A stretch of 64,000 nt of DNA. It comes from Escherichia coli. Lineage in GTDB: Bacteria; Pseudomonadota; Gammaproteobacteria; Enterobacterales; Enterobacteriaceae. Every line of letters begins with the position of its first letter. Within the stretch, counting starts at the first letter, position 1. The notes beneath the pieces are model-generated. The model did not search any database. It was not told the DNA's origin and worked only from the letters and a program-made list of their open reading frames with translations. The stretch lies in the NCBI RefSeq assembly GCF_009931435.1, contig NZ_CP043414.1; one strand, 5' to 3'. Below, piece after piece: positions 1-62,392 of this stretch. Both the position numbers and the translations under genes were made by a program.

Positions 1-492
1 ATAGGAATGGCGGCGCGTTACGCGTGGTTAAATCGCGTGACAATTGCCGAAATGGTGCGCGTATGTCTTGCCAATCTCTTTCATCAGGACAATTCGCATC
101 TGGTGGTGGATGTGCCACATAACATCATCCTTCGCGAGCATGAAATGAATATTCATCGCAAAGGCGCAACACCGGCACGAGTGGGCAATCTGGCGTTAAT
201 CCCCGGTTCAATGGGCGATTATTCGTGGCTTGCGGTTGGTTGCGGCAACCCGGAGTGGCTGTGGTCATGCAGTCACGGAGCAGGACGCAGCCAGCGTCGG
301 CAGGCCATGCGCTCACGCGCGACTGAAGAGTCAACGCTGCCGTGGCAATGCGTCACATTGCGCGAAGAACGACGTCTTGAAGAAGCGCCAGCGGCTTATA
401 AAGATATTGGTCCGGTTATCGAAGCCCAACAAGAAGCCGGATTAATTCAGCCTGTGGTCAGATTTCGACCGTGGTTAACGTTTAAGGCATAA
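1..492 (+). CDS. RtcB-family RNA ligase-like protein, C-terminal 161 codons (5' end lies outside the window)
   Basis: ORF 7..492 in frame from window start; contains IPGSMG and SHGAGR motifs, with the His about 72 residues from the C-terminus as expected for the RtcB GMP-attachment histidine; ends convergent with sucD. Confidence 0.55.
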   Translation: MGMAARYAWLNRVTIAEMVRVCLANLFHQDNSHLVVDVPHNIILREHEMNIHRKGATPARVGNLALIPGSMGDYSWLAVGCGNPEWLWSCSHGAGRSQRRQAMRSRATEESTLPWQCVTLREERRLEEAPAAYKDIGPVIEAQQEAGLIQPVVRFRPWLTFKA

Positions 493-496
493 AAAA

Positions 497-514
497 GGCC
501 ATCATACGATGGCC
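497..514 (-). terminator. intrinsic terminator hairpin (ggccatc-atac-gatggcc) followed on the minus strand by a U-run; ends the sucABCD transcript
   Basis: perfect 7-bp stem with 4-nt loop at 497-514 flanked by aaaaaa at 491-496 on the plus strand. Confidence 0.6.
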
Positions 515-589
515 AACCATGTCGAAACCGACAGCCCTTCGCCATTCCTGTAGAGGGAAGCGGCGAGGGCTATTTCTTATTACAGATAT
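497..589 (-). ncRNA. sdhX: candidate 3'UTR-derived sRNA of sucD (SdhX/RybD position)
   Basis: position between sucD stop codon and the terminator; assignment from established K-12 knowledge, sequence identity not verified. Confidence 0.35.
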
Positions 590-1459
590 TTATTTCAGAA
601 CAGTTTTCAGTGCTTCACCGATATCCGCCAGGCTGCGAACGGTTTTCACGCCTGCGGCTTCCAGAGCAGCGAATTTCTCATCCGCAGTCCCTTTCCCACC
701 GGCAATGATGGCACCCGCGTGGCCCATACGTTTGCCTTTCGGCGCAGTTACACCAGCGATGTAACCTACAACTGGCTTGGTAACGTGCTCTTTGATGTAC
801 GCAGCCGCTTCTTCTTCAGCGCTACCGCCGATCTCACCGATCATCACGATCGCTTCGGTCTGCGGATCTTTTTCGAACATTTCGAGGATGTCGATAAAGT
901 TAGAGCCAGGGATCGGGTCGCCGCCGATACCGACACAGGTCGACTGACCGAAACCGTAATCCGTGGTCTGTTTAACCGCTTCATAGGTGAGTGTACCGGA
1001 ACGGGAAACGATACCCACTTTACCCGGTTTGTGAATGTGACCCGGCTGGATACCGATTTTGCATTCACCCGGAGTGATAACGCCCGGGCAGTTCGGGCCG
1101 ATCATACGAACGCCTGCTTCATCCAGTTTCACTTTCACGGTCAGCATATCCAGCGTCGGGATGCCTTCAGTGATGGTGATAATCAGTTTGATACCTGCGT
1201 CGATGGCTTCCAGAATGGAGTCTTTGCAGAACGGAGCCGGTACGTAGATAACAGAAGCGGTAGCGCCAGTGGCAGCAACGGCTTCACGCACGGTGTTGAA
1301 CACCGGCAGACCGAGGTGGGTAGTACCGCCTTTACCTGGGGTTACGCCGCCAACCATTTTAGTGCCGTATGCAATGGCCTGTTCAGAGTGGAAAGTCCCC
1401 TGGCTACCAGTAAAGCCCTGGCAGATAACCTTGGTGTTTTTATCAATTAAAATGGACAT
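590..1459 (-). CDS. sucD: succinyl-CoA synthetase alpha subunit
   Basis: 289-aa ORF starting [33 protein letters not shown], recognised. Confidence 0.97.
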
Positions 1460-2625
1460 TATTTCCCCTCCACTGCGGCAACAACCTGCTGAGCTGCATC
1501 CGTCAGACCTTTTGCTGCAATAATATTCAGGCCGCTGTCAGCCAGTTTCTTCGCGCCGAGTTCGGCGTTGTTACCTTCCAGACGTACCACGACCGGTACG
1601 TTAACACCCACTTCCGCTACCGCGCCGATGATACCGTCAGCGATCAGGTCGCAACGAACGATACCACCGAAGATGTTAACCAGAACGGCTTTCACTTTGT
1701 CGTCAGAGAGGATGATTTTGAACGCTTCGGTTACACGTTCTTTGGTTGCGCCACCGCCAACGTCCAGGAAGTTAGCTGGTTCGCCACCGTGCAGTTTAAC
1801 GATGTCCATGGTACCCATCGCCAGACCTGCGCCGTTAACCATACAACCGATGTTACCGTCCAGCGCAACGTAGTTCAGTTCCCACTGTGCAGCCTGTGCT
1901 TCACGTGGATCTTCCTGCGACTGGTCGCGCATTTCGCGCAGATCAGGCTGGCGGAACAGTGCGTTGCCATCAGCACCCAGTTTACCGTCGAGGCAGATCA
2001 GATCGCCCTGTTTGGTGATGACCAGCGGGTTGATTTCGATCAACGCCAGGTCGCGCTCCAGGAAAATGGTCGCCAGGCCCATGAAGATTTTGGTGAACTG
2101 CTGAACCAGTTTACCTTCCAGACCCAGTTTGAACGCCAGCTCGCGTCCCTGATACGGCATCGGGCCAGTCAGCGGATCAAGCGCAACTTTGTGGATCAGG
2201 TGCGGAGTTTCTTCCGCCACTTTTTCGATTTCCACGCCGCCTTCGGTGGAGGCCATAAAGACCACGCGACGGGAACTACGGTCTACAACGGCACCAAGAT
2301 ACAGCTCTTTAGCGATATCGGTCGCTGCTTCAACCAGAATCTGGTTAACCGGTTGGCCATTAGCATCTGTTTGATACGTTACCAGACGCTTGCCCAGCCA
2401 GTTTTCTGCAAAAGCACGGATGTCTTCTTTGCTGTTTACAACTTTCACACCGCCCGCTTTACCGCGGCCACCAGCGTGAACCTGACATTTCACTACCCAC
2501 GGACCGGCACCGATTTTTGAAGCGGCTTCTTCTGCTTCGCGCGGAGTAGTACAGGCATAACCCACCGGTGCTGGTAAGCCATAGCGGGCAAACAGTTGTT
2601 TTGCCTGATATTCATGTAAGTTCAT
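1459..2625 (-). CDS. sucC: succinyl-CoA synthetase beta subunit
   Basis: 388-aa ORF starting [20 protein letters not shown]; stop/start overlap with sucD. Confidence 0.97.
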
Positions 2626-2707
2626 GTGTTCTGTCCATCCTTCAGTAATCGTTATCTTTTAAACCGTAGACCGAATATTTCGTATCGCTTCCGGGTATTG
2701 TCGGTCA

Positions 2708-2790
2708 CCCGTAGGCCTGATAAGACGCGTCAGCGTCGCATCAGGCTTCAATTGCCGGAGAAAGCGATAATGCCTCATCCGGTCTACAGT
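2708..2790. repeat. REP (repetitive extragenic palindrome) elements in sucB-sucC spacer
   Basis: gtaggcctgataagacgcgtcagcgtcgcatcaggc palindromic unit. Confidence 0.5.
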
Positions 2791-2809
2791 GCAGGTGAAA
2801 CTTAAACTA

Positions 2810-4027
2810 CTACACGTCCAGCAGCAGACGCGTCGGATCTTCCAGCAACTCTTTGATCGTTACCAGGAAACCCACGGACTCGCGACCATCGATCAGACGG
2901 TGATCGTAGGACAGCGCCAGGTACATCATCGGCAGGATCTCAACCTGACCATTCACTGCCATCGGACGATCTTTGATAGCGTGCATACCCAGAATTGCGC
3001 TCTGCGGCGGGTTGATGATAGGCGTAGACATCAGGGAACCGAACACACCACCGTTGGTGATGGTAAAGTTACCACCGGTCAGATCTTCAACCGTCAGCTT
3101 GCCGTCACGGCCTTTAACTGCCAGCTCTTTAATTTTCTTCTCGATGTCTGCCATGCCGAGGGTATCGACATCACGCAGAACCGGCGTCACCAGGCCACGC
3201 GGCGTAGATACCGCCATGCTGACGTCGAAATAGTTGTGGTAAACCACATCATCGCCGTCGATAGAAGCATTCACTTCCGGGTAACGTTTCAGGGCTTCAA
3301 CCACCGCTTTCACGTAGAAGGACATAAAGCCCAGACGGATGCCGTGACGTTTTTCAAACGCTTCACCATACTGCTTACGCAGATCCATAATCGGCTTCAT
3401 GTTGACTTCATTGAACGTGGTCAGCATGGCGGTGGAGTTTTTCGCTTCCAGCAGACGCTCTGCCACACGCTTACGCAGGCGAGTCATCGGAACACGTTTT
3501 TCGCTACGTGCAGCCAGAGCCGGTTGCGCCGCCGTAGCAGCTGCTGCCGGTGCAGACTCTTTCGCCGGGGCTTTCGCCAGATGTTTTTCCACATCTTCAC
3601 GGGTCAGACGACCACCTACACCGGTGCCTTTAATGGCGCTGGCATCAAGATTGTGTTCAGCCAAAAGGCGACGGATCGCAGGGCTTAACGCATCGTTGTT
3701 TTGCTCTTCCAGAGACGCCTGTTGGCGTTGTGCCGGAGTTGACGCTTTCTCTTCAGATTTGGCGCTGGTTTCTTTACCGGCGCTGTTGCCTTCACGCAGG
3801 CGACCAAGGATCTGACGAGACGTTACGGTTGTACCTTCATCTTCCAGAACCGCATCCAGAATGCCGTCTGCTGATGCCGGTACTTCCAGTACCACTTTGT
3901 CAGTTTCGATTTCTACCAGCACTTCATCACGTACGACTGCGTCGCCGGGTTTTTTATGCCAGGTTGCGACGGTGGCATCGGCTACGGATTCAGGCAGGTC
4001 AGGGACCAGAATATCTACGCTACTCAT
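2810..4027 (-). CDS. sucB: 2-oxoglutarate dehydrogenase E2 (dihydrolipoyl succinyltransferase)
   Basis: 405-aa ORF starting [26 protein letters not shown]. Confidence 0.97.
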
Positions 4028-4041
4028 TGTGTATCCTTTAT

Positions 4042-6843
4042 TTATTCGACGTTCAGCGCGTCATTAACCAGATCTTGTTGCTGTTTCTGGTGAACGGACA
4101 TATACCCTACCGCCGGAGAGGCGGAGGCCGGGCGGCCTGCATAACGCAGAGAAGCCCCAAACGGAATCACTTCACGGAAATGATGCTGGCTGCAGTACCA
4201 TGCGCCCTGGTTGAGCGGCTCTTCCTGGCACCAGACAAAATCCTTGACGTGAGCAAACTGCTGCAACACTTCCTGCATCGCTTTATGCGGGAACGGGTAG
4301 AGTTGCTCGATACGCACAATGGCGACATCGTGTTGATTGTTCTTACGGCGTTGTTCCAACAGGTCGTAATAAACCTTACCAGAACACATCACTACGCGCT
4401 TCACACCCTTAGGATCAAGCTCGTCGATTTCACCAATGGCAGGCAGGAAGGTGCCGTTCGCCAGTTCTTCGAGGCTGGAAACCGCCAGCGGATGACGCAG
4501 CAGGGATTTCGGCGACATCACCACCAGCGGACGACGCATCCCGCGCAGCGCCTGACGACGCAGCATATGGTAAACCTGTGCCGGGGTAGACGGTACGCAC
4601 ACCTGCATGTTTTGTTCAGCACAAAGTTGCAGATAACGTTCCAGACGCGCGGAGGAGTGCTCCGGCCCCTGCCCTTCATACCCGTGCGGCAGCAGCATTA
4701 CCAGACCACACATCCGGCCCCATTTCTGTTCGCCAGAGGAGATGAACTGGTCGATAACCACCTGCGCACCGTTAGCGAAGTCACCAAACTGCGCTTCCCA
4801 GATGGTCAGCGTACGCGGCTCTGCGGTGGCATAACCGTATTCAAACGCCAGCACTGCTTCTTCAGACAGTACGGAGTCCCAGACGCGGAACGCGCCCTGG
4901 CCATTATGGATATGTTGCAGCGGCGTGTAAGTGGAACCGTTGGACTGGTTGTGGATCACCGCATGGCGATGGAAGAAGGTACCGCGACCGGAGTCTTCAC
5001 CCGACAGGCGGACCGGAATGCCTTCATCAACCAGCGTGGCGTAAGCGAGGTTTTCCGCGCCGCCCCAGTCGAACAGTTTCTCACCGGCAGCCATTGCCTG
5101 GCGATCGCCATAAATCTTGGCAACGCGAGACTGCATTTCAACCGCTTCCGGCACCGTACTGATACGTTTCGCCAGTTCCTGCAGGCGCTTCATCTCAACT
5201 TTGTTCGGGTACTCTTCGTCCCATTCGTGGTTGAGGTACGGCGACCAGGTGAAAGAGTGCATGTTCATCGGACGCCACTCTGCTACCACGCAATCGCCAG
5301 CATCCAGCGCATCGCGGTACAGGTTAACCATCTCGGTGGCATCTTCCAGCGTCGCGACTTTTTCCTGCTCCAGCTTGTCAGCGTAGATTTTGCGCGGCGT
5401 CGGATGTTTTTTGATTTTCTGATACATCAGCGGCTGAGTTGCACTCGGCTCGTCGGCTTCGTTGTGGCCGTGACGGCGGTAGCACACCAGGTCGATGAAG
5501 ACATCACGTTTAAAGGTGTTACGGAAATCGAGCGCCAGACGGGTCACAAAGGCAACGGCTTCCGGATCATCCGCATTAACGTGGAAAATCGGTGCCTGTA
5601 CCATCTTGCCGATATCAGTACAGTACGGCGTAGAACGGGCATCCAGCGGGTTAGAGGTAGTGAAACCGACCTGGTTGTTGATAACGATACGTACCGTACC
5701 GCCAACTTCATAACCACGCGCTTTCGACATGTTCAGGGTTTCCTGAACCACGCCCTGCCCGGTCACTGCGGCATCACCGTGGATGGTGATTGGCAGCACT
5801 TTGTTGCTGCTCGGCTCATCGAGTCTGTCCAGACGGGCGCGAACAGAACCGATAACTACCGGGCTTACAATCTCAAGGTGAGACGGGTTAAACGCCAGCG
5901 CCAGGTGAACCAGGCCGCCATCGGTCTGGAAGTCAGACGAGAAGCCCATGTGGTATTTCACGTCGCCCGTGCCGAGGTGTTCTTTATGTTTACCGGCAAA
6001 TTCGTCGAACAAATCTTGCGGTTTTTTACCCAGCACGTTAACCAGCACGTTCAGACGACCACGGTGCGCCATCCCAAGAACCACTTCACGGGTGCCGCTG
6101 TTGCCAGCATGGCGGATCATCTCTTTAAGCATCGGGATTAACGCATCACCGCCTTCCAGCGAGAAGCGTTTTGCGCCAGGGAATTTTGCGCCGAGGTAAC
6201 GTTCAAGGCCTTCAGCGGCGGTCAGTTCGCTTAAGAAGCGTTTTTTCTCTTCGCTATTGAAAGTCGCGCGACCAGACTCGATACGCTGTTGGATCCAGCG
6301 TTTTTCTTCGGTGCTGGTAATGTGCATGTACTCGGCACCAATCGGGCCGCAGTAGGTTTGCTTGAGGGCTTCCAGCAGCTCGCCGAGTTTCATGGTTTCT
6401 TTGCCGCTGGCAAATGAACCGACGTTGAAGGTCTCCTGGAAGTCTGCTTCGGTCAGATCGTGGAAAGACGGATCCAGATCGGCCACTTTATCTTGCTGCC
6501 ACAGTCCCAGCGGATCGAGATTCGCATGCTGGTGACCGCGGAAGCGGTATGCGTTAATGAGCTGCAGGACTTTAACCTGCTTCACATTGGTGTCAGGGTC
6601 GGAGATCGTTGAAGAGTAACGTGAAGCGTCTTTCGCCAGGCGGCGGAAATATTCACGCGTTTGAGAGTGGAATTGATCCGGTTTGACTCCCGTACCAGGT
6701 AACTGCTGGAACGTCGAACGCCAGTTAGCGTCAACCGAGTCAGGATCGGTTAAGAAGTCTTCATAGAGCTGTTCTATCCAGCTCTGGTTTGCGCCAGAGA
6801 GGTAAGAAGAGTCCAACCAGGCTTTCAAAGCGCTGTTCTGCAT
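4042..6843 (-). CDS. sucA: 2-oxoglutarate dehydrogenase E1
   Basis: 933-aa ORF starting [30 protein letters not shown]. Confidence 0.97.
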
Positions 6844-7002
6844 CGTGATCCCTTAAGCATCTTTTTTATGCTTACTTCGCCGTGGATACTACCACGCACA
6901 GTGATGTGCGTGCCGGGGTTCACTTGCGAGCTCTTGTCTACGTAGTGGCTCGCGAAGGAACCTTTAAAAACTGTCTTAGTGTCAGGGGCAGTTTTTAAAG
7001 AT

Positions 7003-7283
7003 TTCCTGCATTTCTTTTGTAGGCCGGATAACGCATTCACGCTGCATCCGGCGCTGTTTGCCTGATGCGACGCTTGCGCGTCTTATCAGGCCTACGATTC
7101 CTGCATTTCTTTTGTAGGCCGGATAACGCATTCACGCCGCATCCGGCCCTGGTTGCCTGATGCGACGCTTGCGCGTCTTATCAAGCCTACGATTTCTGCA
7201 TTTCTTTTGTAGGCCGGATAAGGCGTTCACGCCGCATCCGGCACTGGTTGCCTGATGCGACGCTTGTGCGTCTTATCAGGCCT
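7003..7283. repeat. tandem BIME/REP array, three copies of a ~95-bp unit each with two inverted REPs
   Basis: unit ttcctgcatttcttttgtaggccggataacgcattcacgc...ctgatgcgacgcttgcgcgtcttatcaggcctacga seen three times in the sdhB-sucA spacer. Confidence 0.75.
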
Positions 7284-7287
7284 GGGT

Positions 7288-8004
7288 TTACGCATTACGC
7301 TGCAACAACATCGACTTGATATGGCCGATGGCGCGCGTCGGGTTCAGCCCCTTCGGACATACACTGACGCAGTTCATGATGCTGTGACAGCGGAATACGC
7401 TGAATGCATCGCTCAAACCGTCGAGGCGGCTGTCAGTCTCGGTATCACGGCTATCGATCAGGAAACGATATGCCGCTAACAAGCCTGCCGGGCCGATAAA
7501 CTTATCGGGATTCCACCAGAAAGACGGACAAGAGGTTGAACAACATGCGCAGAGAATACATTCATACAGCCCGTCGATTTTTTCGCGCTGCTCTGGCATC
7601 TGTAAATGCTCACGAGCTGGCGGATTTTGTCCATTATTCAACAGGTAAGGCTTAATTTTCTCATATTGCGCATAGAATTGTCCCATGTCTACCACCAAAT
7701 CGCGGATCACTGGTAAACCTGGCAGCGGGCGAATCACAATCTTCTTGCCCGGCTGGTTGAGTGCCGAAATCGGGGTAATACAGGCCAGACCATTCTTGCC
7801 GTTCATGTTCAGACCGTCGGAACCGCACACACCTTCACGGCAGGAGCGACGGAACGACAGGCTGGGATCTTTCTCTTTCAACTGGATAAGCGCATCCAGC
7901 AGCATCATGTCGCGACCTTCTTCCGCTTCCAGGGTGTAATCCTGCATACGCGGAGCATCATCAACATCCGGGTTATAGCGATAAATTGAAAACTCGAGTC
8001 TCAT
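7288..8004 (-). CDS. sdhB: succinate dehydrogenase iron-sulfur subunit
   Basis: 238-aa ORF starting MRLEFSIYRYNPDVDDAPRMQDYTLEA. Confidence 0.97.
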   Translation of the reverse strand: MRLEFSIYRYNPDVDDAPRMQDYTLEAEEGRDMMLLDALIQLKEKDPSLSFRRSCREGVCGSDGLNMNGKNGLACITPISALNQPGKKIVIRPLPGLPVIRDLVVDMGQFYAQYEKIKPYLLNNGQNPPAREHLQMPEQREKIDGLYECILCACCSTSCPSFWWNPDKFIGPAGLLAAYRFLIDSRDTETDSRLDGLSDAFSVFRCHSIMNCVSVCPKGLNPTRAIGHIKSMLLQRNA

Positions 8005-8019
8005 TTTCCTGTCTCCGCA

Positions 8020-9786
8020 TTAGTAAGTACGAATCTTCGGCGGGAATGCCGGGCGCAGTTTCGGTTCCATGTTGACGCTTCGGCGCGTCATGGATTCCGA
8101 CTCTGGCAGATACAGGGAGTGGCACAGCCAGTTTTCATCATCACGATCCGGGAAGTCGAAGCGGCTATGCGCGCCACGGCTTTCGGTACGGAAGTTGGCA
8201 GAAACAGCCGTTGCATACGCCGTTTCCATCAGGTTATCCAGTTCCAGGCATTCAACGCGCTGGGTGTTGAACTCGCTGGAAGTGTCATCCAGACGGGCAT
8301 TTTTCAAACGCTCGCGGATCACTTTCAACTGCTCAAGCCCTTTTGCCATCGCATCACCTTCACGGAAGACCGAGAAGTTATGCTGCATACATTCTTGCAG
8401 TGCTTTACGAATCGCCACTGGATCTTCACCATTACGGTTGTTGTTCCAGCGATTCAGACGATCCAGAGACGCTTCAACATCAGACTCGCTGGCATCGCGC
8501 AGTGCGCCCTGCTCGGCAATAGACTCTTGCAGATGCAGGCCCGCTGCGCGACCAAAGACCACCAGGTCCAGCAGCGAGTTGCCGCCAAGACGGTTAGCGC
8601 CGTGTACCGATACACAAGCGATTTCACCTACCGCGAACAGCCCCGGAACAACCACATCTTCGCCTTTCTCGTTCACCGTCAGCGCCTGACCGGTCACTTT
8701 GGTCGGAATACCGCCCATCATGTAGTGACAGGTTGGGATAACCGGAATCGGCTCTTTCACCGGATCGACGTGTGCGAAGGTACGGGAGAGTTCAAGGATA
8801 CCCGGCAGACGGGATTCGAGAACTTCTTTACCCAGGTGGTCGAGTTTCAGTTTTGCATGTGGCCCCCATGGACCATCACAGCCGCGACCTTCACGGATTT
8901 CGATCATGATGGAACGCGCCACCACGTCACGGCCCGCCAGATCTTTGGCATTCGGCGCATAACGCTCCATAAAGCGTTCGCCATGTTTGTTCAGCAGATA
9001 ACCGCCTTCACCACGGCAACCTTCGGTGACCAGTACGCCCGCACCTGCTATACCGGTCGGGTGGAACTGCCACATTTCCATATCCTGCACCGGTACACCT
9101 GCACGGATAGCCATGCCGACGCCATCTCCGGTGTTAATGTGCGCGTTGGTGGTGGACTGATAAATACGCCCTGCCCCGCCGGTTGCCAGCACAGTCGCAC
9201 GGGCTTTGAAGTAAACCACTTCACCGGTTTCGATGCACAGTGCGGTACAACCAACTACCGCGCCATCCTGGTTCTTCACCAGATCCAGCGCATACCACTC
9301 GGAGAAAATGGTGGTGTGGTTTTTCAGGTTCTGCTGATAAAGCGTGTGCAACAGTGCGTGACCGGTACGGTCAGCTGCCGCCGCAGTACGTGCCGCTTGC
9401 TCGCCACCGAAGTTTTTCGACTGGCCGCCAAACGGACGTTGATAGATACGACCATCATCAAGGCGCGAGAACGGCAGGCCCATGTGTTCCAGTTCCAGAA
9501 TCGCTTCCGGCCCGGTTTTACACATATATTCAATCGCGTCCTGGTCACCGATATAGTCCGACCCTTTTACGGTGTCGTACATATGCCATTCCCAGTTATC
9601 TTCATGGGTATTACCCAGCGCAACGGTAATGCCGCCTTGCGCAGAAACGGTATGGGAACGGGTCGGGAAGACTTTGGAGAGCAGCGCACAGGTTTGGCCG
9701 CTCTGGGAAATTTGCAGCGCCGCGCGCATACCTGCGCCACCGGCACCAATCACAACTGCATCAAATTCTCTGACTGGCAATTTCAT
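8020..9786 (-). CDS. sdhA: succinate dehydrogenase flavoprotein subunit
   Basis: ORF 8020..9798; start taken at [24 protein letters not shown] (588 aa), FAD-binding GxGxxG motif. Confidence 0.95.
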
Positions 9787-10133
9787 CACACACCCCACAC
9801 CACAACGAATCCATAAATCACGTAAACCACCAGTGCAACGACAATCACCAGTTGCAGCATCAGGCGCAAAGCCAGTGGTTTAACGTAGTCGGTCAACACC
9901 TGCCACATGCCGATCCAGGCATGGATCAAGATAGAAAACAGCGCCAGCAGGGTGAACACTTTGGTGAACGCAGAGGCGAAGAAACCAATCCAGACTTCAT
10001 ATGTCAGCTCGCCAGTGGTAGCGAAAAAACCGACCATATAAATGATGTAAAGCGTCAGGACGATAGCGGTAGCGCGAACGAGGATGAAATCATGTACGCC
10101 ATTGCGTCCTAATGCGGAGGCGTTGCTTACCAT
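9786..10133 (-). CDS. sdhD: succinate dehydrogenase membrane anchor subunit
   Basis: 115-aa hydrophobic [29 protein letters not shown]. Confidence 0.95.
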
Positions 10134-10516
10134 ACGAGGACTCCTGCGAGAAGTGAAAGCACGACAGTAATAACAAAGGAGATTTTGGCGGAGCGTTTAC
10201 CCGCTTCGAATGTTTCTTCCAGATAGCCAAAATCCATCATCATGTGGCGAATACCTACGACGACGTGATACGCCAGAGCGGTAAGGATGCCCCACATGAT
10301 AAATTTGACGAAGAAGCTGCCCATAATCGCGGAAGCTTGCTCGAAACCTTCAGGGGAAGAGAGGCTGGTACCCAGAAGCCACAGCAGGATGCCCACTGCA
10401 ACAAAGGTGATCACACCGGAAACGCGATGGAGAATGGACGCTATCGCCGTGACGGGGAACCGGATGGTCTGTAGGTCCAGATTAACAGGTCTTTGTTTTT
10501 TCACATTTCTTATCAT
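10127..10516 (-). CDS. sdhC: succinate dehydrogenase cytochrome b556 subunit
   Basis: start taken at [20 protein letters not shown] (129 aa) inside ORF 10127..10531. Confidence 0.93.
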
Positions 10517-11224
10517 GAATAACGCCCACATGCTGTTCTTATTATTCCCTGGGGACTACGGGCACAGAGGTTAACTTTCTGTTACCTGGAGACGTCGGGA
10601 TTTCCTTCCTCCGGTCTGCTTGCGGGTCAGACAGCGTCCTTTCTATAACTGCGCGTCATGCAAAACACTGCTTCCAGATGCGAAAACGACACGTTACAAC
10701 GCTGGGTGGCTCGGGATTGCAGGGTGTTCCGGAGACCTGGCGGCAGTATAGGCCGTTCACAAAATCATTACAATTAACCTACATATAGTTTGTCGGGTTT
10801 TATCCCGAACAGTGATCTGGGTCACGATAACAACATTTATTTAATTTTTAATCATCTAATTTGACAATCATTCAACAAAGTTGTTACAAACATCACTAGG
10901 AAAAGCATATAATGCGTAAAAGTTATGAAGTCAGTATTTCACCTAAGATTAACTTATGTAACAGTGTGGAAGTATTGACCAATTCATTCGGGACAGTTAT
11001 TAGTGGTAGACAAGTTTAATAATTCGGATTGCTAAGTACTTGATTCGCCATTTATTCGTCATCAATGGATCCTTTACCTGCAAGCGCCCAGAGCTCTGTA
11101 CCCAGGTTTTCCCCTCTTTCACAGAGCGGCGAGCCAAATAACAAACGGGTAAAGCCAGGTTGATGTGCGAAGGCAAATTTAAGTTCCGGCAGTCTTACGC
11201 AATAAGGCGCTAAGGAGACCTTAA
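10517..11224. promoter_or_regulatory. divergent gltA / sdhCDAB promoter-regulatory intergenic region
   Basis: ~700-bp AT-rich spacer between divergently oriented gltA and sdhC; function from established knowledge, sites not mapped. Confidence 0.6.
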
Positions 11225-12508
11225 ATGGCTGATACAAAAGCAAAACTCACCCTCAACGGGGATACAGCTGTTGAACTGGATGTGCTGAAAGGCACGCTGG
11301 GTCAAGATGTTATTGATATCCGTACTCTCGGTTCAAAAGGTGTGTTCACCTTTGACCCAGGCTTCACTTCAACCGCATCCTGCGAATCTAAAATTACTTT
11401 TATTGATGGTGATGAAGGTATTTTGCTGCACCGCGGTTTCCCGATCGATCAGCTGGCGACCGATTCTAACTACCTGGAAGTTTGTTACATCCTGCTGAAT
11501 GGTGAAAAACCAACTCAGGAACAGTATGACGAATTTAAAACGACGGTGACCCGTCATACCATGATCCACGAGCAGATTACCCGTCTGTTCCATGCTTTCC
11601 GTCGCGACTCGCATCCAATGGCAGTCATGTGTGGTATTACCGGCGCGCTGGCGGCGTTCTATCACGACTCGCTGGATGTTAACAATCCTCGTCATCGTGA
11701 AATTGCCGCGTTCCGCCTGCTGTCAAAAATGCCGACCATGGCCGCGATGTGTTACAAGTATTCCATTGGTCAGCCATTCGTTTACCCGCGCAACGATCTC
11801 TCCTATGCCGGTAACTTCCTGAATATGATGTTCTCCACGCCGTGCGAACCGTATGAAGTTAATCCGATTCTGGAACGCGCGATGGACCGTATTCTGATCC
11901 TGCACGCTGACCATGAACAGAACGCCTCTACCTCCACCGTGCGTACCGCTGGCTCTTCGGGGGCGAACCCGTTTGCCTGTATCGCAGCAGGTATTGCTTC
12001 ACTGTGGGGACCAGCGCACGGTGGTGCTAACGAAGCGGCTCTGAAAATGCTGGAAGAAATCAGCTCCGTTAAACACATTCCGGAATTTGTTCGTCGTGCG
12101 AAAGACAAGAATGACTCTTTCCGCCTGATGGGCTTCGGTCACCGCGTGTACAAAAACTACGACCCGCGCGCCACCGTCATGCGTGAAACCTGCCACGAAG
12201 TCCTGAAAGAGCTGGGCACGAAGGATGACCTGCTGGAAGTGGCTATGGAGCTGGAAAACATCGCGCTGAACGACCCGTACTTTATCGAGAAGAAACTGTA
12301 CCCGAACGTCGATTTCTACTCTGGTATCATCCTGAAAGCGATGGGTATTCCGTCTTCCATGTTCACCGTGATCTTCGCTATGGCACGTACAGTTGGCTGG
12401 ATCGCCCACTGGAGCGAAATGCACAGTGACGGCATGAAGATTGCCCGTCCACGTCAGCTGTATACCGGCTATGAAAAACGCGATTTTAAAAGCGACATCA
12501 AACGTTAA
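11225..12508 (+). CDS. gltA: citrate synthase
   Basis: 427-aa [36 protein letters not shown]. Confidence 0.97.
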
Positions 12509-42970: not shown

Positions 42971-43070
42971 TGCCGGATGCGGCGTGAACGCCTTATCCGT
43001 CCTACAAAATAGTGCAAATTCAATATATTGCACCATCCTCGTAGGCCTGATGAACGTAGCGTATCAGGCT
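42971..43070. repeat. REP elements between pgm and ybfP
   Basis: tgccggatgcggcgtgaacgccttatccgtcctac and gtaggcctgatgaacgtagcgtatcaggc. Confidence 0.5.
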
Positions 43071-61688: not shown

Positions 61689-61765
61689 GGCTACGTAGCT
61701 CAGTTGGTTAGAGCACATCACTCATAATGATGGGGTCACAGGTTCGAATCCCGTCGTAGCCACCA
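61689..61765 (+). tRNA. metT: tRNA-Met (elongator, anticodon CAT)
   Basis: 77-nt cloverleaf ggctacgtagctcagttggttagagcac...ccacca, anticodon loop ctcataa. Confidence 0.95.
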
Positions 61766-61773
61766 TCTTTTTT

Positions 61774-61858
61774 GCGGGAGTGGCGAAATTGGTAGACGCA
61801 CCAGATTTAGGTTCTGGCGCCGCAAGGTGTGCGAGTTCAAGTCTCGCCTCCCGCACCA
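61774..61858 (+). tRNA. leuW: tRNA-Leu (anticodon TAG)
   Basis: 85-nt class II tRNA gcgggagtggcgaaattggtagacgc... with long variable arm, anticodon loop tttaggt. Confidence 0.95.
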
Positions 61859-61881
61859 TTCACCAGAAAGCGTTGTACGGA

Positions 61882-61956
61882 TGGGGTATCGCCAAGCGGT
61901 AAGGCACCGGTTTTTGATACCGGCATTCCCTGGTTCGAATCCAGGTACCCCAGCCA
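61882..61956 (+). tRNA. glnU: tRNA-Gln (anticodon TTG)
   Basis: 75-nt tggggtatcgccaagcggtaaggcaccggtttttgataccgg...; symbol assigned by order. Confidence 0.93.
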
Positions 61957-61990
61957 TCTTCTTCGAGTAAGCGGTTCACCGCCCGGTTAT

Positions 61991-62065
61991 TGGGGTATCG
62001 CCAAGCGGTAAGGCACCGGTTTTTGATACCGGCATTCCCTGGTTCGAATCCAGGTACCCCAGCCA
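61991..62065 (+). tRNA. glnW: tRNA-Gln (anticodon TTG), tandem copy
   Basis: identical to the previous tRNA-Gln(TTG); symbol assigned by order. Confidence 0.93.
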
Positions 62066-62080
62066 TCGAAGAAACAATCT

Positions 62081-62157
62081 GGCTACGTAGCTCAGTTGGT
62101 TAGAGCACATCACTCATAATGATGGGGTCACAGGTTCGAATCCCGTCGTAGCCACCA
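62081..62157 (+). tRNA. metU: tRNA-Met (elongator, anticodon CAT), second copy
   Basis: identical to metT sequence. Confidence 0.95.
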
Positions 62158-62205
62158 AATTCTGAATGTGTCGAATGCGTTCGGCAAATTCACAAACCAA
62201 TTTGT

Positions 62206-62280
62206 TGGGGTATCGCCAAGCGGTAAGGCACCGGATTCTGATTCCGGCATTCCGAGGTTCGAATCCTCGTACCCCAGCCA
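62206..62280 (+). tRNA. glnV: tRNA-Gln (anticodon CTG)
   Basis: 75-nt tggggtatcgccaagcggtaaggcaccggattctgattccgg... Confidence 0.93.
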
Positions 62281-62317
62281 ATTTATTCAAGACGCTTACC
62301 TTGTAAGTGCACCCAGT

Positions 62318-62392
62318 TGGGGTATCGCCAAGCGGTAAGGCACCGGATTCTGATTCCGGCATTCCGAGGTTCGAATCCTCGTACCCCAGCCA
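62318..62392 (+). tRNA. glnX: tRNA-Gln (anticodon CTG), tandem copy
   Basis: identical to the previous tRNA-Gln(CTG). Confidence 0.93.

Follow-up and report, generated by a model that had tools for sequence, protein, structure and literature searches.

The 3′-terminal segment of the sdhCDAB–sucABCD operon in an Escherichia coli genome with a convergent RtcB-family gene as the probable sdhX gene of the small RNA SdhX (RybD)

In Salmonella the small RNA (sRNA) SdhX is found in two forms, SdhX1 of 87 nt and SdhX2 of 38 nt (Miyakoshi et al., 2019, PMC6393394). The RNase E site lies at a UUU motif and the short form is 38 nt in length (PMC6393394; form lengths and site also in PMC9438474). The Salmonella and E. 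coli types are both made by RNase E cleavage at the operon's 3′ end, and they have in common the core CGACAU, the terminal U stretch and the main target ackA. They differ in that the E. coli type, to which the sequence described here belongs, carries a G at position 62 and a stretch complementary to katG, whereas Salmonella has a U at position 62; fdoG and katG are targets of the E. coli type in place of fumB and yfbV in Salmonella (PMC6393394). G62, numbered from the end of the sucD coding sequence, is the determinant for fdoG, and further upstream a stretch specific to E. coli, in which C34 was mutated, pairs with the katG Shine–Dalgarno sequence (PMC6393394). Hfq favours the U tails of terminators (PMC6393394). 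CpxQ, SroC, NarS and MalH, which are likewise RNase E-processed and Hfq-dependent 3′ UTR sRNAs, share with SdhX a terminator common to the parent mRNA, the lack of a promoter of their own and a seed located immediately upstream of that terminator (PMC9438474), but their parent operons and targets are different. Outside the seed SdhX is unusually variable between genera, yet it is nearly invariant within E. coli.

The sequence analysed here (the window) is a stretch of 64 000 nucleotides of E. coli DNA. In the annotation of K-12 MG1655 the ncRNA gene sdhX (b4764) occupies NC_000913.3 765050–765150, directly after sucD, in agreement with the statement of an earlier note on the window that the K-12 sucD 3′ UTR yields SdhX/RybD. 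The sRNA was reportedly described as RybD by Zhang in 2003, and the E. coli SdhX paper is said to be that of De Mets from 2019. The counterpart in the window, 101 nt in length, is encoded on the strand of sucD immediately 3′ of the stop codon of that gene and has the following features.

489–589, minus strand: sdhX, SdhX/RybD sRNA in its long form (~101 nt), counterpart of K-12 b4764 with 100/101 identity
533–571, minus strand: 5′ stem-loop of long SdhX (sRNA nt 19–57), −25.1 kcal/mol, z = −4.8, identical to K-12
556, minus strand: C34, katG determinant, C present
528, minus strand: G62, fdoG determinant, G present
516–526, minus strand: seed UUCGACAUGGU, as defined in PMC6393394, intact
519–524, minus strand: seed core CGACAU, intact
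491–528, minus strand: putative short processed form GUUUCGACAUGGUUGGCCAUCGUAUGAUGGCCUUUUUU, equivalent of the 38-nt SdhX2, with G62 as its first base
497–514, minus strand: Rho-independent terminator hairpin, GGCCAUC / loop GUAU / GAUGGCC, from terminator scan and fold, identical to K-12
491–496, minus strand: U6 tract, terminator tail and expected Hfq-binding 3′ end, from sequence and terminator scan

The earlier note had placed a sucD 3′ UTR segment at the position of SdhX at 497–589. The place was correct, but the unit runs from 589 to 489; the note had stopped at the base of the terminator stem and so omitted the U tract at 496..491. Alignment of window 589..489 (minus strand) with K-12 sdhX, which the note had proposed together with an inspection of the seed, gave 100 identical positions out of 101 without gaps, and the seed was intact at 526..516; the lack of similarity named there as counter-evidence was thus not what was found. 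The sole mismatch is a G-to-A change at nt 100 (window 490), past the U6 tract, and an A is also found at this position in the aligned O157 and B2-type sequences. A BLAST search with the 101-mer returned an E value of 7e-45, and a 19-mer joining the seed to the terminator stem occurs once in the window and in none of 100 shuffles, so the likeness to K-12 sdhX is not due to chance. The minus strand between sucD and the convergent gene reads AUAUCUGUAAUAAGAAAUAGCCCUCGCCGCUUCCCUCUACAGGAAUGGCGAAGGGCUGUCGGUUUCGACAUGGUUGGCCAUCGUAUGAUGGCCUUUUUUAU. Compared with K-12 SdhX, the position after the sucD stop codon, the strand, the seed, G62, the katG-pairing stretch, the 5′ hairpin, the terminator stem and loop and the U6 tract are all the same, whereas nt 100 is A instead of G and the convergent neighbour is an RtcB-family gene, the stop codon of which overlaps the U tract, instead of mngR. 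A search of positions 1..3000 against Rfam 15 (E ≤ 1) gave no match within 489–589, its only matches being REP-like naRNA4 hits at 2669–2784. Because a near-identical copy of K-12 sdhX would match if the family were modelled, this null result evidently reflects an SdhX family without an Rfam model and not a missing RNA.

Judged by its sequence, the segment after sucD is the well characterized sRNA SdhX (RybD), an already known and ordinary RNA. With a probability of about 0.95 we regard it as the sdhX gene, that is, as an operon 3′ end which is released as the Hfq-dependent sRNA SdhX and represses ackA. The direct basis of this assignment is the identity with K-12, the presence of the seed, hairpins and U tract, the position after sucD, the intact operon and the complementarity to ackA. 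RNase E processing, Hfq binding and repression in the strain from which the window derives are expected by analogy with the K-12 and Salmonella literature.

The parent operon sdhCDAB–sucABCD is intact in the window (590..10531, minus strand) and is composed of the following genes.

590–1459, minus strand: sucD, 289 amino acids, last gene of sdhCDAB–sucABCD, from the open-reading-frame list and Pfam, stop codon TAA at 590–592
1459–2625, minus strand: sucC
2810–4027, minus strand: sucB
4042–6843, minus strand: sucA
7288–8004, minus strand: sdhB
8020–9798, minus strand: sdhA
9786–10133, minus strand: sdhD
10127–10531, minus strand: sdhC

The sucD product matched the Pfam families CoA_binding (3.5e-32) and Ligase_CoA (2.5e-27), as for the succinyl-CoA ligase α subunit, and the annotation was confirmed in relatives. 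gltA (11225–12508) is divergent from the operon. Two intergenic regions of the operon contain repeated elements. A REP-like element at 2669–2784 (both strands) in the sucB–sucC spacer scored 50 bits with the naRNA4/CssrE model, below the gathering score of 59.5; the spacer measures 184 nt in the window, 94 nt in O157 644-PT8 and in FCI1 and approximately 262–274 nt in NC101 and Z0117EC0005, which suggests a variable number of REP copies inside the operon. Three tandem elements of the naRNA4/REP type (66–87 bits, above the gathering score) are located between sdhB and sucA at 7022–7282 (plus strand). In the literature an internal terminator and promoter of the operon are assigned to the sdhB–sucA region.

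A consensus scan of the minus strand detected no promoter-like site in the last ~400 nt of sucD, which would fit the published production of SdhX by processing only. On this model sdhX would be the 3′ untranslated region of the sdhCDAB–sucABCD transcript, from which RNase E would free SdhX as an Hfq-dependent sRNA in a long form of ~101 nt and a short form of ~38 nt. The 5′ end of the 38-nt form would lie at 528 in this strain, by analogy with the published RNase E site, and the UUU motif of the processing site is present at 527..525 (minus strand). The seed, single-stranded ahead of the terminator hairpin, would pair with the start-codon region of the ackA mRNA and repress the synthesis of acetate kinase, tying acetate metabolism to the expression of the TCA-cycle operon. 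In E. coli SdhX, G62 and the upstream C-rich stretch would further allow repression of fdoG and katG.

Folding of full-length SdhX gave a minimum free energy of −41.3 kcal/mol (z = −4.67 versus shuffles) and three elements: first the 5′ hairpin (nt 19–57, window 571..533), then a weak helix of 4 bp and, last, the terminator. Within the 5′ hairpin lies the E. coli-specific stretch that pairs with katG, including C34 at 556. The terminator stem (514..497, minus strand) consists of seven base pairs, five of them G–C, closed by a 4-nt loop and followed by TTTTTT, and it was the single terminator-like site found by a pattern scan of positions 1..1500. The description of this hairpin as a strong intrinsic terminator was confirmed: folded in isolation, the hairpin has an energy of −12.7 kcal/mol, whereas shuffles average −2.8 (z = −5.07). 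The distance of approximately 90 nt that had been given between the sucD stop codon and the terminator holds when measured to the end of the stem, but the stem begins after 75 nt. In the fold of the 38-nt form (528..491) the seed is wholly single-stranded and lies 5′ of the terminator.

All of the published functional determinants of SdhX, i.e. the seed, its core, G62, C34, the 5′ hairpin and the terminator, are intact in the window. Pairing with ackA was assessed using the K-12 gene from −50 to +30 as a proxy, as the strain's own ackA lies outside the window; the 80-nt ackA start region was found in 5424 of 5426 complete E. coli genomes, with at least 99% identity in 5126. UCGACAUGG forms a contiguous perfect 9-bp duplex with CCAUGUCGA of K-12 ackA across the AUG and UCG codons. 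Only this contiguous seed duplex is taken as evidence, RNAduplex on the full molecules over-extending the pairing by ignoring intramolecular structure. The katG and fdoG genes of the strain likewise lie outside the window, and these target sites were checked in K-12 and across the species.

A BLAST search with the sdhX 101-mer found it in 5425 of 5426 complete E. coli genomes, with identities of at least 99% in 4225 records, 95–99% in 1194 and 90–95% in seven. At least four downstream contexts of sdhX occur in the species.

K-12 type: convergent mngR, with its stop codon 2 nt past sdhX
Window type: methylaspartate/glutamate-fermentation island ending in a 473-amino-acid RtcB-family gene, in 154–156 of 5426 genomes (~3%)
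O157 type: island as in the window type, with a near-complete deletion of rtcB that leaves remnants of 57 and 44 bp, one of which has a 1-nt insertion
B2 type: a TPR protein, then cydA

The 44-nt 3′ end of rtcB, used as a megablast query, matched 154 rtcB-bearing genomes and missed the O157-type remnant, in which the 1-nt indel leaves an exact word of less than 28 nt. Among the aligned contexts sdhX varies at three places only: an AU-to-GG change in B2 at two neighbouring positions on the 3′ side of the loop of the 5′ hairpin, a G-to-U change in B2 at one base of the terminator loop, and nt 100. No difference between the six aligned E. coli contexts occurs in the seed, in either arm of the terminator or in the U tract; beyond that tract, resemblance between contexts is lost within a few bases (BLAST boundaries at 483 or 489). 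The junction of a variable island coincides exactly with the 3′ end of the sRNA U tract, with four different neighbours and an unchanged seed and terminator. From the alignments, this constancy would fit strong purifying selection on SdhX within E. coli. The earlier note had asked whether the sRNA and its terminator are preserved next to a neighbour other than that of K-12; the neighbour is indeed different, an RtcB-family gene replacing mngR, and the seed, stem, loop and U6 tract are nevertheless identical to those of K-12. Among the matches listed, RefSeq/PGAP annotates nothing under sdhX and the curated K-12 record alone has an ncRNA feature. The segment deserves the sdhX label, and the gap in annotation is systematic; beyond correct annotation the significance is small.

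The convergent neighbour was examined with respect to its identity and to transcription towards sdhX.

1–492, plus strand: 3′ part of an RtcB-family gene (open reading frame 7..492, the gene being cut by the start of the window), PF01139, E = 1.2e-44, stop codon TAA at 490–492
533–582, plus strand: complement of the SdhX 5′ hairpin (533–571) followed by the T-rich tail TATTTCTTATT (572–582), −24.2 kcal/mol, z = −4.2

Its translation covers positions 239–425 of the 426 of the PF01139 profile, in line with the earlier naming of the gene as RtcB-like. In the nearest genome (NZ_CP098223.1) a 473-amino-acid 'RtcB family protein' is encoded beside the methylaspartate/glutamate-fermentation island, the genes of which include glutamate mutase, methylaspartate ammonia-lyase, an AtuA-family protein, a DUF4387 protein, a dicarboxylate symporter, a class I fumarase, cobO and a LysR regulator. 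For the final 44 nt of the RtcB-family gene (445–488, plus strand) the best match in a complete E. coli genome was 95.5% identical (two mismatches); sdhX next to it is identical to that of many genomes. Positions 1–1000 were matched at 99% or more in nine records only, and because of this small number the lineage of the window is regarded as poorly represented among complete E. coli genomes.

The terminator had been described as shared with the RtcB-like gene, which is correct only in part. The U6 tract overlaps the last two bases of the stop codon of that gene (490–492); on the plus strand there is no T run. There the hairpin at 497–514 (−13.2 kcal/mol) is preceded by AAAAAA and followed by AACCATG, and the scan of positions 1..1500 returned no plus-strand terminator at 497–514 of the kind expected for a bidirectional intrinsic terminator. 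Since a T run follows on the minus strand only, the hairpin qualifies as a canonical terminator of the suc operon alone and not as a canonical bidirectional one. Further downstream the plus-strand hairpin at 533–571 is followed by UAUUUCUUAUU. The 533–582 element was not called by the simple terminator scan, its stem being bulged, its loop long and its T tail interrupted; it may represent a candidate terminator of the convergent gene, located within sdhX.

Convergent transcription of the RtcB-family gene could in principle interfere with SdhX. The RtcB-family transcript, without a canonical terminator of its own, might run antisense through the terminator and seed of SdhX, stop at the 533–571 hairpin and its T-rich tail, and titrate SdhX or trigger its cleavage. 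This scenario is considered very unlikely. If it were true, the 3′ end of the rtcB mRNA would be perfectly complementary to short SdhX, and expression of the methylaspartate/RtcB island would be linked in a strain-specific manner to the control of acetate metabolism and the TCA cycle; if the 533–582 element terminates transcription in K-12, the 3′ UTR of mngR would likewise be antisense to short SdhX.

A stronger version of the same concern is that the segment serves only as a structural 3′ UTR with the terminator of the suc operon and that no functional sRNA accumulates, for instance because RtcB-family transcription or antisense pairing destroys it. The RtcB-family open reading frame ends 4 nt before the hairpin and, with no T run on the plus strand, antisense read-through is conceivable. 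The arrangement in K-12, however, is equally tight, the stop codon of mngR lying 2 nt past sdhX, and functional SdhX is still made there (PMC6393394); moreover, the sdhX sequence is identical and, irrespective of the neighbour, is conserved in 5425 of 5426 genomes, and the loss of a functional sRNA is held to be highly improbable. It is barely plausible that the segment is mainly a two-way termination zone, in which the sucD transcript ends at the minus-strand hairpin and U6, and the RtcB-family transcript at the complement of the 5′ hairpin together with its T-rich tail, any sRNA being secondary. The stability of the plus-strand hairpin at 533–571 (−24.2 kcal/mol, z = −4.2, followed by TATTTCTTATT) speaks for this arrangement, but the terminator scan did not call the 533–582 element, the tail of which is interrupted, and the seed, which lies between the two hairpins, does not vary and has been shown experimentally to be functional in K-12 and Salmonella (PMC6393394). 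Such a zone would in any case be compatible with the role as an sRNA, so that the reading as sdhX would stand beside it.

A small protein encoded by the open reading frame 519..764 (plus strand, 81 amino acids) or 447..545 (minus strand, 32 amino acids) is of negligible probability: both frames appear in the mechanically generated list, but the former is antisense to the sucD coding sequence, and the latter runs across the terminator into the 3′ end of rtcB and would be disrupted in K-12 and B2 strains, in which the sequence diverges past 489. Small open reading frames overlapping sdhX were rejected as coding, as there is no coding support and sdhX accounts for the whole region.

Two further sets of RNA genes were noted elsewhere in the window. 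Positions 43006–43048 (plus strand) matched the Rfam sRNA family ES036 (CssrF) at 45.5 bits, the gathering score being 37.6. Seven tRNA genes are found at 61689–62392 (plus strand) in the order Met(cat), Leu(tag), Gln(ttg) twice, Met(cat) and Gln(ctg) twice, a cluster which matches the K-12 metT–leuW–glnUW–metU–glnVX operon.
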